From: a virus
Length of the DNA stretch: 10,574 nt
UHGV virus genome: UHGV-0338520
Strand: one strand, 5' to 3'
The position numbers were made by a program, and so were the translations under genes. The notes under the pieces were generated by a model. That model was not told where the DNA came from. It ran no database searches and worked only from the letters and a program-made list of their open reading frames with translations. Positions 2,557 through 10,574 of the stretch are shown piece after piece (position 1 is the stretch's first letter; each line of letters starts with the position of its first letter).

Positions 2557-3108
2557 ATGATATATCCGGAAATTACAGGCAAAAGCGGCGAACATTTACG
2601 CCTGAACACGCTGGAAGCAGTCTGGATCCAGGGGAAATTACGGATGTGGGGGCGGTGGTCGTATATCGGTGGGGGTAAATCCGGAAATATGTTTAACCGG
2701 TTACTGGTTTCGAAAAAGCTGACGAAAACAGCAGTTAATGAGGTTTTACGCAGAATGAAGAAATCCGGGCTGGAAAAACCGGAACTTGAGGCATTTTTTC
2801 GGGATATGACAAGAGGAAAGCAGAAGAGCTGGTTGTCACATTGTACAGACACAGAGGCGTTGATTATTGATCGCGTTATCAGTGAGGTGCTTGGGGAATA
2901 TCCCGGGCTAATCAATGTTCTCCGGCAAAGGTACGAAGGACGGGGAATGAGCAAACTGAAAATGGCCGAAAGGTTAAATGCAGATCATCCTGATTGGTCG
3001 TTGGTTACGTGCAGACGCCGAATTGATCAATGGTTGGGGGTATCTGAATTTATGTTATATGCCCCCATGCGCATGGCTTTTGTTACAGAGAAAAATGTTG
3101 CAAACTGA
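2557..3108 (+). CDS. Putative late-gene antiterminator (Q-like)
   Basis: ATG 2557, with an alternative in-frame GTG at 2545 overlapping the rusA stop. Lies directly downstream of rusA and upstream of a strong terminator, the canonical Q position. Contains a W-G-x-W segment (KLRMWGRWSYIGG...LLVSK) reminiscent of the RWGAW...LITSK segment recalled for Stx-phage Q. Family assignment unverified. Confidence 0.5.
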   Translation: MIYPEITGKSGEHLRLNTLEAVWIQGKLRMWGRWSYIGGGKSGNMFNRLLVSKKLTKTAVNEVLRRMKKSGLEKPELEAFFRDMTRGKQKSWLSHCTDTEALIIDRVISEVLGEYPGLINVLRQRYEGRGMSKLKMAERLNADHPDWSLVTCRRRIDQWLGVSEFMLYAPMRMAFVTEKNVAN

Positions 3109-3186
3109 TCAATAAACTGCTTCAATCCGTATAAGCTTCGCAAAGCTGTATCGCGAGGCGAAACGCAAGTTTTTTTCGCACAAGGA

Positions 3187-3209
3187 AGCCACCGGAAGGT
3201 GGTTTTTTT
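3187..3209 (+). terminator. Rho-independent terminator downstream of the Q-like gene (tR'-like candidate)
   Basis: Stem ccacc (3189-3193), GGAA tetraloop, stem ggtgg (3198-3202), then seven T (3203-3209). Confidence 0.6.
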
Positions 3210-3332
3210 GTGTCCGCGATATACAGTAGCGCAATAAATTCGCTGGTGGTTATTAATACCGTTCTTTCAGCTTGCTGGCTTTTTCTACAAGAGTTATTGG
3301 TGTGTCACGTTAACCGAAAAAGGGAAAAAGAC

Positions 3333-3530
3333 ATGCTAAAACAGCAGGATATGACAGAAACCGCCAGAGTGGTGTTTAATGAATTAAGCGTTACCGAACC
3401 GGCGACAGTCGGGGAGATAGCGCAGAATACTTACCTTTCACGCGAACGCTGCCAGTTAATACTGACCCAGCTGGTTATGGCGGGTCTGGCAGACTATCAG
3501 TTCGGTTGTTACAGACGCCTTCCGCAGTGA
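3333..3530 (+). CDS. Small hypothetical protein (65 aa), possibly winged-helix DNA-binding
   Basis: ATG 3333 preceded by AGGGA with 7-nt spacing. The longer ORF-track start at 3210 has no RBS and begins inside the terminator. Sequence composition is suggestive of a small wHTH fold; this is inference only. Confidence 0.45.
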   Translation: MLKQQDMTETARVVFNELSVTEPATVGEIAQNTYLSRERCQLILTQLVMAGLADYQFGCYRRLPQ

Positions 3531-3557
3531 AGGCTTTTTTATTTGTGGTAAATGGGC

Positions 3558-3588
3558 GGCTGGTGGGTGTTAGGGGCACCCACCAGCC
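3558..3588. repeat. Perfect 12-bp inverted repeat (stem-loop) between the small ORF and the methyltransferase gene
   Basis: ggctggtgggtg (3558-3569), loop ttagggg, cacccaccagcc (3577-3588). No U-tract follows on either strand, so it is not a canonical intrinsic terminator. Confidence 0.7.
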
Positions 3589-3680
3589 ATCTGCTCATGC
3601 GTTGGGTTCACAAGCAAACCTCAGGCCCACTGCTTTGCGCAAAAGCAGAATGAGCCTATCAGAGACAGGCTTAATGAACC

Positions 3681-4730
3681 ATGCTTAATACTGTAAAAAT
3701 ATCCAGTTGTGAGTTAATCAACGCCGACTGCCTGGAATTTATCCGGTCGTTACCCGAAAATTCTGTTGACCTGATAGTCACGGACCCGCCGTACTTTAAA
3801 GTGAAGCCTGAGGGCTGGGATAACCAGTGGAAGGGCGACGATGATTACCTGAAGTGGCTGGACCAGTGTCTGGCGCAGTTCTGGCGGGTGCTGAAACCTG
3901 CCGGAAGTCTTTACCTGTTCTGTGGTCATCGCCTGGCATCTGATATCGAAATCATGATGCGTGAACGCTTCAGTGTGCTGAACCATATTATCTGGGCGAA
4001 GCCGTCCGGATGCTGGAACGGATGCAACAAGGAAAGCCTGCGGGCGTATTTCCCCGCCACAGAGCGCATTCTGTTCGCGGAACATTATCAGGGGCCGTAT
4101 CGTCCGAAAGATGCCGGGTATGAGGCGAAGGGCAGGGCACTGAAACAGCATGTGATGGCCCCGCTGATTTCTTACTTTCGTGATGCGCGCGCGGCCCTGG
4201 GGATAACGGCAAAACAGATTGCAGATGCCACAGGAAAGAAAAACATGGTGTCGCACTGGTTCAGTGCCAGTCAGTGGCAGCTACCGAACGAAAGCGATTA
4301 TCTGAAATTACAGTCGCTGTTTGCCCGGGTGGCAGAAGAGAAACATCAGCGGGGAGAACTGGAAAAGTCCCATTACCAACTGGTCAGCACATACAGTGAG
4401 CTGAACCGGCAGTATACGGAACTGCAGAGTGAATATAAGCATCTGCGGCGGTATTTTGGCGTGACGGCGCAGGTGCCGTACACGGATGTGTGGACGCATA
4501 AACCGGTGCAGTACTATCCAGGGAAACATCCGTGCGAAAAACCGGCAGAAATGCTGCAGCAGATAATCAGCGCAAGTAGTCGTCCTGGTGATCTGGTTGC
4601 GGATTTTTTCATGGGGTCGGGTTCAACGGTAAAAGCGGCGATGGCACTGGGGCGTCGTGCGATTGGTGTTGAGCTGGAGACCGGACGTTTTGAGCAGACA
4701 GTCAGGGAAGTTCAGGATTTAATCGTTTGA
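3681..4730 (+). CDS. DNA methyltransferase, beta-class amino-methyltransferase (N6-adenine or N4-cytosine); orphan
   Basis: 349 aa. Motif IV DPPY near the N-terminus (IVTDPPYFKV) and motif I FxGxG near the C-terminus (FFMGSGSTVKAAMALGRRAIGVE), the beta-class order. No adjacent endonuclease-like ORF. Confidence 0.88.
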   Translation: MLNTVKISSCELINADCLEFIRSLPENSVDLIVTDPPYFKVKPEGWDNQWKGDDDYLKWLDQCLAQFWRVLKPAGSLYLFCGHRLASDIEIMMRERFSVLNHIIWAKPSGCWNGCNKESLRAYFPATERILFAEHYQGPYRPKDAGYEAKGRALKQHVMAPLISYFRDARAALGITAKQIADATGKKNMVSHWFSASQWQLPNESDYLKLQSLFARVAEEKHQRGELEKSHYQLVSTYSELNRQYTELQSEYKHLRRYFGVTAQVPYTDVWTHKPVQYYPGKHPCEKPAEMLQQIISASSRPGDLVADFFMGSGSTVKAAMALGRRAIGVELETGRFEQTVREVQDLIV

Positions 4731-4779: not shown

Positions 4780-4855
4780 GGCCCTTTAGCTCAGTGGTGA
4801 GAGCGAGCGACTCATAATCGCCAGGTCGCTGGTTCAAATCCAGCAAGGGCCACCA
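4780..4855 (+). tRNA. tRNA with anticodon CAT; ileX/ileZ-like tRNA-Ile2 (lysidine) by similarity, formally Met by anticodon
   Basis: Cloverleaf read by eye: acceptor ggccctt/aagggcc, D-stem gctc/gagc, anticodon loop ctCATaa (CAT at 4813-4815), T-arm gctgg-ttcaaat-ccagc, discriminator A and encoded CCA. Closely resembles E. coli ileX as recalled. Confidence 0.85.
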
Positions 4856-4957: not shown

Positions 4958-5034
4958 GCGTTGTTAGCTCAGCCGGACAGAGCAATTGCCTTCTAAGCAA
5001 TCGGTCACTGGTTCGAATCCAGTACAACGCGCCA
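4958..5034 (+). tRNA. tRNA-Arg (anticodon TCT, reads AGA/AGG)
   Basis: Acceptor gcgttgt/acaacgc, D-stem gctc/gagc, anticodon stem attgc/gcaat with loop ctTCTaa, T-arm cactg-gttcgaatc-cagt, discriminator G and encoded CCA. Confidence 0.88.
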
Positions 5035-5498: not shown

Positions 5499-5889
5499 AT
5501 ACATATCTGGATTATCACCTGTTACGGTAAAAAGTGATAGCTTACTGTTTTTGTGAATGGCATTGCAGCAGCCGGATAATGTCAGTGCTGGCTGACGGTG
5601 TGCTGGTGGCGGGTGTGGTGGTTGTTGCTTTCCCGTTGCTGAAAAAGAAAACGCCAGACTGTTAGCCGGGTATCAGTTAGCGGGAGAAATTTTTAAATAC
5701 TTCACAATTCAGGCGGTTGACTGTTGTCTGGTTTGCGGGGAGTTTGTTAAAAGAAACTGGCATGGTGAATCCCCCTGTGCGGAGGGGCAATCAGCGAGTA
5801 GGTATATGGGATAATCGCGGATTCAGGTGCTGGTACTGAATTCACCGGGAGGCACCCGGCACCATGCAATGGCACATAGCGCCACTCTC

Positions 5890-5918
5890 CAGCCCCTCTC
5901 CGGAGGGGCTGTTTATAT
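5890..5918 (+). terminator. Rho-independent terminator inside the cargo island
   Basis: Perfect 9-bp stem cagcccctc (5890-5898), loop tccg, gaggggctg (5903-5911), followed by tttatattgatttt. Confidence 0.6.
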
Positions 5919-5945
5919 TGATTTTGTCAGATGTGAGTAAACTCC

Positions 5946-6281
5946 TTATGGACTTTGTTGTTTTAGCCCATAAGGACATATTTGCAGAGTGCAACGGTTA
6001 TTAAAGCATTCATTCAATACGTTATCTGTATTTGTAGGGCATTCCTGGCTGTTTTTGATTAAATTCCAGAATGTTTTATTGAATGGTACTACGTTGTAAA
6101 TGGTTACAGGTAGCACTTTGTTATTGAGCATGATACCTGTGTGAGTCAGTGTAAATATACTTTCAGGAGGTAAGAAAGCATCCGATTGATACCAGATTAT
6201 TAATTTTATTTTACTCCATATGACTGAAAAAGATATTCCGCATGATGGCTGGATAACTGTATCAATCACAATCCACTTCAT
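5946..6281 (-). CDS. Hypothetical cargo protein (111 aa) on the opposite strand to the late operon
   Basis: Minus-strand ORF with AAGGAA Shine-Dalgarno about 7 nt upstream of its ATG. Six ATA codons, five Cys, no recognisable family. It is one of only two supported minus-strand genes in the window. Confidence 0.55.
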
Positions 6282-10367: not shown

Positions 10368-10457
10368 TTAATACGATACCTGCGTCATAATTGATTGTTC
10401 GCTGCATAGCGGTCCGACCCCGTACTGCTCACGCAGCTTATCCAGCAGTGGCATCAT
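10368..10457 (-). pseudogene. Truncated IS3-family OrfB (first about 20 codons, then unrelated sequence and a stop)
   Basis: The -1 frame relative to OrfA gives [20 protein letters not shown] then QSIMTQVSY*. An intact OrfB would be about 290 aa. Confidence 0.5.
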
Positions 10458-10574
10458 TTTTTCCAGAGGCGGTCGAACTCCGCCTTCGCAAAATAAGCGG
10501 AAGCCTGGCGAAGGATATCGTTACTGCGGCGCAGTTCACGATTTTCACGTTCCAGCTCTTTCAGACGCTGACGT
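10395..10574 (-). mobile_element. Truncated IS3-family insertion sequence (IS629/IS1203-like from memory); continues beyond the window end
   Basis: Minus-strand translation ...[39 protein letters not shown] is a typical IS3-family OrfA leucine-zipper C-terminus. An overlapping -1 frame starts [20 protein letters not shown] (OrfB start) but hits a stop after 29 codons, so similarity appears to end near 10395-10398. Confidence 0.6.
10454..10574 (-). CDS. IS3-family transposase OrfA, C-terminal 39 codons (partial; start lies beyond the window)
   Basis: Open minus-strand frame from the window edge to the stop at plus 10454-10456, with an A6 slippery-like run immediately before the stop and the overlapping OrfB ATG. 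Confidence 0.6.

Follow-up and report, generated by a model that had tools for sequence, protein, structure and literature searches.

How does a temperate phage keep a DNA methyltransferase that can harm its host silent in the lysogen, and then release it? M.EcoGI and M.EcoGII, from prophages of E. coli O104:H4 C227-11, are non-specific N6-adenine methyltransferases (Murray et al., 2018, PMC5778455); their family methylates adenine regardless of sequence context and is silent in lysogens (PMC5778455, PMC6602927), homologues being inactive in O111 lysogens too, and constitutive expression leads to slow growth and clone instability (PMC5778455). How such an enzyme stays silent and is then released has no prior description. 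The locus studied here lies in a 10,574-nt stretch of the virus genome UHGV-0338520 (hereafter, the window), where a methyltransferase gene follows a 65-aa ORF and a perfect 12-bp inverted repeat—an arrangement likened in the initial annotation to the controller proteins and operators of restriction-modification systems. We find that the repeat belongs instead to a conserved RNA leader, which, as its predicted structure suggests, probably helps keep a harmful methyltransferase off until the phage turns lytic.

The methyltransferase matches Pfam PF01555 (N6_N4_Mtase) at E=5.4e-45 (154.5 bits; cut-off 26.7) and shows the beta-class motif order, with TDPPY at aa 34–38 (motif IV, N-terminal) followed by FFMGSG at aa 309–314 (motif I, C-terminal), both essentially invariant across 181 distinct homologues. 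It is identical to M.EcoGII at 335/350 positions (96%) over its full length, a count in which a few differences may be reading errors, since the reference sequence was machine-read from the PDF supplement of PMC11551740. By its length, identity, motif order and prophage location, the window methyltransferase is an M.EcoGII-type enzyme, and that part was already known; the window allele carries R111C, unique among the 181 homologues, plus about 14 other substitutions, and its activity is a prediction from sequence. A PDB sequence search returned no solved M.EcoGII structure, the best matches being other beta-class enzymes (1e-26). Both the methyltransferase and the 65-aa ORF are annotated by RefSeq in an E. 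coli O15:H18 chromosome with 99.9% identity; phage 1720a-02, which among phage DNA matches the window best, carries a close relative of the enzyme, and relatives occur in 2579/5426 complete E. coli genomes, in up to 8 copies. No restriction endonuclease gene lies within the window or its 19.7-kb annotated context, so that the orphan, beta-class phage enzyme with intact motifs described in the initial annotation stands as described, and its suggested anti-restriction role is in keeping with membership of a characterized family. As that family is silent in lysogens, the check first suggested, sequencing a lysogen’s methylome, is known to detect no activity of it (PMC5778455, PMC6602927).

The genes around the methyltransferase (Table 1) share one strand and run in the order Q-like gene, terminator, small ORF, terminator, methyltransferase, ileZ/argO tRNAs, lysis genes, with DUF968/HNH-like and RusA genes also 5′ of the methyltransferase and the sRNA STnc100 (5731–5920) and an IraM homologue also 3′ of it. 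Assignment of the Q-like gene draws on PF06576 (DUF1133, E=3e-105), PF06530 (Phage_antitermQ, E=2.6e-7), phrog_753 (“anti-termination protein Q-like,” E=1.6e-75) and a RefSeq CDS in locus L001. The terminator beyond it (fold of 3125–3225, −39.3 kcal/mol, z=−5.0) resembles tR′ by position, and we infer that the promoter pR′ lies in 3105–3145; a promoter consensus scan did not find a sigma-70 site for it. Most related prophages are homologous to the window only from ~3232 rightwards, which indicates that the Q gene, promoter and terminator move together, as a module of their own. The second terminator, t2, overlaps the end of the small ORF, whose stop codon falls in the t2 loop and 3′ arm; its hairpin is retained through compensatory changes in other genera, with a U tract of variable quality, and is present also in loci without the small ORF. 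In phiP27 and other Stx2 phages, the methyltransferase module with its ileZ/argO tRNAs stands immediately 5′ of stx2. On balance we favor the reading in which the late operon of a lambdoid prophage has its first cargo module here, a placement that fits the silence reported for the enzyme family in lysogens.

Table 1. Features of the methyltransferase locus, numbered along the window.
Feature	Position	Strand	Remarks
Q-like late antiterminator gene	2557–3108	+	Marks start of late operon
Strong intrinsic terminator	3178–3213	+	Core CCACC-GGAA-GGTGG (3189–3202) and T7 (3203–3209); ~70 nt past Q gene
65-aa ORF	3333–3530	+	phrog_331, function unknown; PGAP name “TrmB family transcriptional regulator”
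Canonical intrinsic terminator t2	3517–3544	+	GCCTTC-CGCAGT-GAAGGC and TTTTTTATTT; terminator scan
Hairpin 1	3552–3598	+	47-nt stem-loop; MFE fold
Chi octamer GCTGGTGG, exact	3559–3566	+	One per repeat arm; Chi activity predicted from sequence
Chi, reverse-strand twin	3580–3587	−	As above
Leader domain 2	3605–3680	+	Helices P2, P3, P4; RNAalifold and single-sequence folds agree
Methyltransferase ORF	3681–4730	+	349 aa; beta-class N6-adenine DNA methyltransferase, M.EcoGI/M.EcoGII family
tRNA-Ile2 (anticodon CAU, ileZ type)	4780–4855	+	ARAGORN, Rfam, annotations of L001 and phiP27
tRNA-Arg (UCU, argO type)	4958–5034	+	ARAGORN, Rfam, annotations of L001 and phiP27

Judged by its synteny and substitution pattern, the 65-aa ORF is a genuine gene, conserved and under coding constraint. 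An RBS (AGGGA at 3321–3325) lies ~8 nt 5′ of its ATG, a homologue (tblastn, 37–100% identity) directly precedes the methyltransferase in 65/80 genome loci, in a neighborhood that spans Escherichia to Xenorhabdus, and differences at codon positions 1, 2 and 3 number 888, 568 and 1488. The AlphaFold2 model (pLDDT 89, topology H-H-H-beta-beta) confidently predicts a winged helix, for which Foldseek returns generic winged helices (IclR, MarR, O-methyltransferase dimerisation domains, SelB). The good RBS and possible winged-helix character noted in the initial annotation are thereby borne out; the domain searches gave only a TrmB match below the Pfam cut-off (E=0.0026), no Xre-type HTH or C-protein match in Pfam, and nothing in NCBIfam. 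Its net charge is about −1, helix 3 (RCQLILTQLxxAGL) is largely hydrophobic and kept from E. coli to Photorhabdus, and no more than one or two Cys are conserved in the family. A profile built from 18 diverse members found 428 homologues, and the 120 listed were all short, stand-alone proteins, with no domain fusion among them. A literature search for a small ORF, hairpin or RNA motif adjoining N6_N4_Mtase genes found nothing relevant.

Downstream of t2, the two 12-nt arms of the repeat, GGCTGGTGGGTG (3558–3569) and CACCCACCAGCC (3577–3588), are 100% complementary and 7 nt apart, the sole perfect pair among seven inverted repeats in the window. A Rho-independent terminator was considered for this GC-rich repeat and rejected, in agreement with the initial annotation: the sequence that comes after the stem, ATCTGCTCATG / AUCUGCUCAUG, contains no T run, and the terminator scan does not return the repeat. 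In the fold, the repeat is the upper stem (loop 3570–3576) of a two-tier structure, hairpin 1, whose lower stem pairs AUGGGC (3552–3557) with GCUCAU (3593–3598) and whose tiers are separated by a 4-nt internal loop on the 3′ side (3589–3592). Neither this lower stem nor t2 nor the Chi octamer in each arm appears in the initial annotation. The two-tier architecture recurs in 32/32 diverse leaders, at −19 to −34 kcal/mol, and the stem itself varies, with a bulge in most genera and an arm-to-arm span of 15 to 31 bp around a stem base, GGCUGG/CCAGCC, that is kept from E. coli to Photorhabdus.

Hairpin 1 opens a leader of ~130 nt (3552–3680; z=−3.9 for the fold in the window) whose second domain reaches the methyltransferase start. 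In domain 2, P2 (3605–3610 and 3612–3615 with 3669–3672 and 3675–3680) ends one base 5′ of the AUG, P3 pairs 3623–3629 with 3651–3657 and P4 pairs 3630–3636 with 3642–3648, and two conserved strands at the junction, (C)GAACC and AUCAGAG, stay unpaired. P2 is predicted to pair bases −1 to −12 before the methyltransferase AUG, so that positions −12 to −3 have a predicted mean P(unpaired) of 0.26, the AUG itself being fairly open (0.69). No Shine–Dalgarno sequence is evident for the enzyme, i.e., no GGAG-like motif stands at SD distance. On paper, GCUCAU (3593–3598) could alternatively pair with GUGAGC in P3, in columns that are near-invariant. Two further candidates were rejected: a pseudoknot between the hairpin 1 loop (UAGG) and a 3′ junction CCUA, which by eye suits E. 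coli and many others and fails in Providencia and Mixta, and an overlapping upstream ORF that couples its translation to the methyltransferase, for which the open frames differ among leaders.

Across 89 distinct sequences, 95.8% of the leader’s pair cells are standard-paired, versus 26–45% with slid partners; by element the figures are 99.4% for the lower and 97.3% for the upper stem of hairpin 1, 97.2% for P2 and 94.5% for P3. Doubly changed, compensatory pairs number 11 (five in the upper stem, four in P2, two in P3) versus 2.9±1.2 in shuffles, none of 500 of which reaches 11, a covariation kept modest (11/39 pairs) by the high conservation of the sequences; controls on related sequences can overstate support. 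An alignment of 32 leaders gave a similar result. One compensated pair, U3608:A3677, is seen in the window itself, its nearest relative and 10 viral contigs having U·U there. G·U outnumbers A·C by 257 to 43 in the leader overall (six to one) and by 169 to 13 in hairpin 1 (13:1), which argues for RNA of the + strand and against a DNA operator. At the nucleotide level the spacer is more conserved across genera (82% mean column identity) than the proteins on either side (62–80%).

The element also keeps its place. A covariance model (R1) recovers it whole in 47/80 genome loci at E=1e-17 to 1e-35, one per locus, always ending at the methyltransferase start codon, and hairpin and leader are retained in 13 genome loci without the small ORF. 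Among 120 viral contigs with the domain 2 core, the methyltransferase start lies directly 3′ in 118/120, the exceptions being one internal deletion and one contig end. In Xenorhabdus and Photorhabdus, a hairpin-1-like stem is kept, domain 2 is absent and the genes have SD-like starts of their own, which means that a translational lock is not universal to the methyltransferase family; a MAFFT alignment of these spacers gave no consensus fold. Taken with its predicted fold, this pattern marks the leader as a conserved, strand-specific structured RNA in fixed position relative to the methyltransferase and, by its structure, as probably of a cis-regulatory kind, in keeping with the earlier suggestion that the hairpin could be a regulatory or RNA-processing element. 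It is apparently new and seemingly undescribed: the published work on M.EcoGII (PMC5778455) does not describe the upstream small ORF, terminators or leader RNA, and cmscan of the whole window (Rfam 15, E<=1) returned no match on the + strand of 3517–3680, the leader’s lone match being a sub-threshold, minus-strand P26 (24.2 bits vs. a gathering score of 36, E=0.16). The pR′-tR′ transcripts and “moron” sRNAs (AgvB/AsxR, Pas, STnc100; PMC4104026, bioRxiv 10.64898/2026.05.13.724894) share this neighborhood downstream of Q. However, those sRNAs follow cargo genes or are confined to Escherichia and Shigella, whereas the leader stands 5′ of the methyltransferase in many Enterobacterales genera and has no Rfam match.

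We consider it somewhat probable that two layers, Q-dependent late transcription and a folded leader that limits translation, together keep the methyltransferase off in the lysogen. An M.EcoGII-type enzyme, in methylating adenine in any context, would shield progeny phage DNA from many restriction systems, and the same activity would be harmful to the host if constitutive. The anatomy suggests the outer layer: with the enzyme gene placed behind a Q-dependent promoter region and two terminators (Table 1), only RNA polymerase that Q has modified to resist terminators would transcribe it, once the prophage is induced. The inner layer would be the leader, at whose 5′ end the repeat forms the upper stem of hairpin 1. 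From the predicted pairing of the start region and the lack of an evident SD, we infer that P2 limits translation of the methyltransferase, i.e., that initiation is held low and that stray read-through transcripts in the lysogen would yield no enzyme. Hairpin 1 would then clamp the 5′ end stably, and it may in addition be a site for processing or for mRNA stability. More speculatively, the 65-aa protein may tune the leader or the enzyme, and it would not be required in cis. A stronger version, in which the leader is a new class of cis-regulatory RNA gating translation of an m6A writer in response to a trans input (the phrog_331 protein as an RNA-binding activator or enzyme-binding partner, or SAM/SAH at the two conserved junction strands), is one that we entertain as unlikely.

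A related system is com-mom of phage Mu, in which a toxic late DNA-modification gene is activated at translation by Com, a zinc-finger RNA-binding protein whose gene overlaps mom. The two systems share a harmful late DNA-modification enzyme, a small ORF just 5′ of it and an enzyme mRNA whose start lies in secondary structure (predicted here). Yet the small protein of this locus is predicted to be a mildly acidic winged helix, its gene is separated from that of the enzyme by a terminator and ~150 nt, and the leader occurs also without the protein gene. A Com-type activator was rejected for the 65-aa protein, given its predicted fold, its paucity of conserved Cys and the absence of overlap with its target gene.

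The most serious competitor to gated translation is a hairpin 1 that serves mainly in RNA processing or stability, e.g., through an RNase III cut in the 3′ internal loop, which would give the small-ORF message a 3′ hairpin that protects it and the methyltransferase mRNA a new 5′ end. The lambda N-leader and sib and the T7 R1.1 RNase III sites have this two-tier shape, and like them hairpin 1 is a long stem (two stacked stems, 18–20 bp in total) with an asymmetric internal loop, placed between genes of a phage polycistronic transcript; the 4-nt loop is found in 32/32 leaders, and the hairpin has no U tract. Processing would also suit a hairpin common to both modules, which is found behind the small ORF in a prophage that has another gene in place of the methyltransferase, and ahead of the methyltransferase where the small ORF is absent; because it is kept in that prophage, hairpin 1 may work for the gene 5′ of it, or mark a junction between modules, instead of working for the methyltransferase. 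The known sites, however, share no sequence homology with it and lack a second conserved domain that reaches a start codon, and processing leaves the conservation of domain 2 and the pairing of the start region unexplained. RNase III has no sequence motif that could be sought here. Processing is compatible with control by the leader and not exclusive of it; as the main role of hairpin 1, we rate it rather improbable. The repeat might alternatively act as DNA. Chi is a recombination hotspot, and one exact copy per orientation could guard replicating or packaged DNA from RecBCD and focus recombination at a module-exchange junction, the RNA hairpin being a by-product. Chi occurs 11 times in the window, where shuffles lead one to expect 0.39, and eight of the 11 are on the late-transcription strand (Chi density in related loci of other genera is 0.6–1.3 per kb). 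The window and other prophages cease to be homologous at 3550 and at 3567–3570, the other edge of the small-ORF module (~3232–3241) abuts a Chi at 3242, and a deletion in locus L084 joins the 3559 region to a Chi-containing repeat at 5602. Yet these coincidences are based on just two junction classes; and while the forward Chi of hairpin 1 is kept in most Enterobacteriaceae and in some loci of Photorhabdus and Xenorhabdus, its reverse-strand twin occurs in only four of the examined loci and a minority of E. coli variants, Providencia and several Xenorhabdus retain the stem with non-Chi arms, and neither the lower stem nor domain 2 is accounted for. We therefore give a DNA role for the repeat little credence.

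The controller analogy of the initial annotation, in which the winged-helix protein would be a DNA-binding regulator and the palindrome an operator gating methyltransferase transcription, fares slightly worse still, and we think it very unlikely. It has in its favor a small HTH-type protein gene directly upstream of the methyltransferase, a nearby palindrome that is perfect in the window, and the conservation of both helix 3 and the stem base from E. coli to Photorhabdus; a small HTH-type protein encoded beside a methyltransferase, with an inverted repeat close by, is also seen in type II restriction-modification systems with their C proteins and C-boxes. But here there is no Xre-type HTH or C-protein match and no endonuclease partner, and the protein is slightly acidic with a largely hydrophobic helix 3. 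The repeat lies 3′ of both the ORF and its terminator, with no inverted repeat of at least 10 nt in 3210–3332 to serve as a palindromic operator 5′ of the ORF, and the element persists in the 13 loci that lack the ORF. The stem is conserved as RNA pairing and not as a pair of DNA half-sites: its 13:1 excess of G·U over A·C, its bulges in most genera and its variable span would be intolerable in a fixed dimer operator. Least probable of all, and rejected as a main model, is a transcription attenuator in which a mini-ORF from AUG 3553 (MGGWW…) acts as leader peptide, governing formation of the hairpin and downstream expression. That AUG is invariant in 32 leaders, and the mini-ORF climbs the 5′ arm of hairpin 1 and stops in the loop in many genera, encoding the seven-codon MGGWWVL* in most Enterobacteriaceae and, in Photorhabdus, MDGWWS*; both have two Trp codons in tandem. 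However, the frame runs for 34 codons in the window, is likewise long in variants from Citrobacter and Mixta and is missing from several Xenorhabdus, and no open frame is consistent across leaders; the AUG has no usable SD and lies inside the lower stem, which already accounts for its conservation, and hairpin 1 has no U tract for termination.

The proposed control by late transcription and a folded leader bears on an enzyme, M.EcoGII, that is widely used in the laboratory and whose relatives often lie directly upstream of Shiga toxin genes. The conserved leader RNA and its winged-helix partner offer two mutable handles on how the methyltransferase is silenced and then released, and both bear on which elements the late promoter transcribes together with stx. 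Were the leader a passive clamp only, these results would amount to a tidy annotation of a known module; if it is a responsive switch, it would represent a new RNA class in phage late-gene control.

The perfect 12-bp inverted repeat flagged by an initial annotation between the small ORF and the methyltransferase gene is the visible tip of a conserved leader RNA of ~130 nt, which is apparently undescribed (the leader had no match in Rfam). The repeat itself was confirmed and, as proposed, is no canonical terminator, there being no T run after it. The inter-gene spacer has 82% mean column identity across genera at the nucleotide level, exceeding the conservation of either flanking protein, and folding recovered a common two-tier stem-loop (hairpin 1) in 32/32 diverse spacers, of which the flagged repeat forms the upper stem. 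The palindrome is perfect in E. coli and E. albertii only; elsewhere the stem is maintained via G·U pairs, a bulge, or wholesale compensatory change (e.g., GACUGUAAAGGUG paired with CACCCUUACAGUC in the Providencia upper stem). In the adjoining domain 2, helix P2 terminates one base before the AUG and encloses P3 and the P4 hairpin, with unpaired, conserved junction strands.

Standard pairs filled 95.8% of paired cells in 89 distinct sequences and 94.4% in 32 sequences, compared with 26-45% and 27-44%, respectively, when partners were slid. Pairs changed on both sides numbered 11 and 10 in these sets vs 2.9±1.2 and 2.1±1.2 in shuffles, which reached the observed value in 0/500 cases each. In the window, U3608:A3677 is a compensated pair, where the closest relatives have U·U. 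Further, G·U exceeded A·C over the whole leader (257 to 43) and in hairpin 1 (169 to 13), and the excess favors a + strand RNA over a palindrome in DNA or a transcript of the minus strand. A covariance model found the whole element in 47 of 80 genome loci (one genome per species, from Escherichia to Xenorhabdus, Photorhabdus, Providencia, and Rosenbergiella), once per locus and with its 3' end always at the start codon. The domain-2 core occurred in 120 viral contigs, with the methyltransferase start directly 3' in 118 (the exceptions being one internal deletion and one contig end). A mini-ORF also begins at an invariant AUG within the lower stem (MGGWW...); in most Enterobacteriaceae it spans 7 codons and stops within the hairpin loop, in Photorhabdus it reads MDGWWS*, and several Xenorhabdus lack it.

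Coordinates of features in and around the leader
Feature	Position	Strand	Detail
Q-like gene	2557-3108	+	
Structured region 3' of Q-like gene	3109-3213		
Intrinsic terminator	3178-3213		z=-5.0
Small ORF	3333-3530	+	65 aa
Second terminator, canonical	3517-3544		contains small-ORF stop codon
Hairpin 1	3552-3598	+	
Hairpin 1 lower stem	3552-3557 with 3593-3598	+	6 bp, AUGGGC with GCUCAU
Hairpin 1 upper stem (flagged repeat)	3558-3588	+	12-14 bp across 32 diverse spacers
Hairpin 1 internal loop	3' side	+	4 nt
Mini-ORF	3553-3654		34 codons in window
Domain 2	3605-3680	+	P2, P3, P4
P2 helix	3605-3615 with 3669-3680		
Methyltransferase	3681-4730	+	349 aa
Codon 111 (R111C)	4011-4013		
STnc100 sRNA	5731-5920	+	132 bits, E=1e-29
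iraM homologue	5946-6281	-	
ALIL pseudoknot	10400-10499	-	75.9 bits
Chi	1297, 1355, 3242, 3559, 5602, 8603, 9005, 9052	+	
Chi	1761, 1813, 3580	-	

The methyltransferase is an already known enzyme, with 335/350 residues identical to M.EcoGII (reference sequence as given in the SUPREM paper's supplement, PMC11551740). Its coordinates and its order of motifs (DPPY, then FxGxG) had been read correctly, its catalytic and SAM-binding motifs are intact, and no restriction endonuclease gene lies near it, as the initial annotation had noted. Among 181 distinct homologues, residue 111 is R in 144 and P in 34, and Cys occurs only in the window's lineage. M.EcoGII methylates adenine in any context, is prophage-borne and unexpressed in the lysogen, and when expressed constitutively yields slow-growing, unstable clones (Murray et al., PMC5778455); homologues in O111 STEC are likewise inactive in lysogens (PMC6602927). 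A close relative is carried by phage 1720a-02 (PMC5778455), the best phage DNA match to the window.

A homologue of the small ORF, whose coordinates and RBS were also correctly called, lies directly 5' of the methyltransferase in 65/80 loci (37-100% identity), and its substitutions show third-position bias (888/568/1488 at codon positions 1/2/3). The suspected wHTH character is borne out by a confident AlphaFold2 model (pLDDT 89) of a winged helix with three helices and two strands, and by Foldseek matches to generic winged helices; Pfam gave only a sub-threshold TrmB match, and PHROGs assigned family 331, function unknown. Of 428 homologues, 120 were listed, each a short stand-alone protein. 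Helix 3 (residues 37-52, RCQLILTQLVMAGL; RCQL[I/L]LTQ..AGL) hardly varies from E. coli to Xenorhabdus, although identity over the remainder falls to about 40%. Because this helix is for the most part hydrophobic and the net charge is about -1, a slight negative charge unusual for a nucleic-acid binder, there is a hint that the target is a protein partner and not a nucleic acid. The proposed likeness to a controller protein and its operator is wrong, as its hallmarks are absent: the protein does not belong to the Xre-type HTH class, an operator 5' of the ORF and an endonuclease are both lacking, and the stem's conservation pattern is that of RNA rather than an operator-like DNA element.

The annotated surroundings belong to a lambdoid prophage, in its late-regulation region, with the gene order hokD, a DUF968/HNH-like gene, rusA, the Q-like antiterminator gene, the small ORF, the methyltransferase, tRNA-Ile2 and tRNA-Arg, the sRNA STnc100, an iraM homologue on the opposite strand, and holin, lysozyme, Rz, and terminase genes. 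A prophage in the E. coli O15:H18 ST69 chromosome is 99.9% identical over 1681 bases here, and related sequence occurs in 2579/5426 complete E. coli genomes (up to 8 copies per genome), Stx2 phages, phage 1720a-02, and phiP27. In phiP27, the small ORF, methyltransferase, and tRNA block lie directly 5' of stx2e; there, a GIY-YIG nuclease-family gene separates the Q-like gene from the small ORF (L002 2624-3853), an apparent insertion of the homing-endonuclease type into the same leader region. Next to STnc100, which is related to PasD sRNAs (2026 preprint), lies the iraM homologue, a prophage-borne version of that anti-adaptor gene. The window's right end, 3' of the lysis genes, borders on an insertion sequence, and an ALIL pseudoknot (IS3-family frameshift signal) was detected.

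A strong, bidirectional-looking intrinsic terminator lies ~70 nt 3' of the Q-like stop codon, and in most related prophages homology to the window starts only at ~3232 and continues rightward, which fits Q, promoter, and terminator travelling together as a specificity module. A hairpin equivalent to the second terminator is kept via compensatory changes in other genera, even without the small ORF. Given the established behavior of lambdoid late operons, we infer that methyltransferase synthesis would depend on read-through of both terminators by Q-modified polymerase. The short structured region ending in the first terminator resembles a pR'-tR' unit, whose product would be a short RNA (~70 nt) like the 6S transcript of lambda or StxS of Stx phages; a consensus scan located no late promoter.

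Both repeat arms contain an exact Chi (GCTGGTGG); the mini-ORF's tandem Trp codons correspond to an in-frame reading of this octamer. The 10.6-kb window holds 11 Chi vs 0.39 expected from shuffles, 8 of them on the late-transcription strand, and related loci in Salmonella, Kluyvera, Klebsiella, and phiP27 are similarly rich (0.6-1.3 per kb); the corresponding mean for the E. coli chromosome is about 0.2. Homology breakpoints at ~3232-3241 and 3550-3570 flank the small-ORF module and adjoin the + strand Chi at 3242 and 3559. One related locus (L084, 2860-2890) carries a deletion, with loss of methyltransferase and tRNAs, in which the 3559 region has become joined to the repeat with Chi at 5602 inside a DUF3927 ORF; in another (L085, 2930-2960), the methyltransferase gives way, just 3' of the hairpin's left arm, to an unrelated gene with an HTH domain. 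Since the reverse Chi is rare among loci and stems with non-Chi arms exist, Chi is possibly a second, DNA-level role of the repeat, not the reason for the hairpin.

As to the initial annotation's suggestion of a regulatory or RNA-processing element, the RNA structure is conserved and part of a larger leader, and its function is inferred. As no Shine-Dalgarno sequence is evident in the leader before the methyltransferase and positions -12 to -3 are predicted to be mostly paired (mean P(unpaired) 0.26), we favor a translational lock on the methyltransferase formed by the folded leader, of which hairpin 1 would be the stable 5' element. Three observations limit this claim: Xenorhabdus and Photorhabdus loci have a hairpin-1-like stem only and their own SD-like starts, the full leader occurs without the small ORF in 13 genome loci, and in an O103 prophage hairpin 1 lies 3' of the small ORF with a different gene in place of the methyltransferase. 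Hairpin 1 is therefore common to both modules and sits exactly at a mosaic junction. A role as an RNase III-type processing or stability element is a serious alternative, or addition, to the lock. The translational lock would back up transcriptional control of an enzyme intolerable to the host.
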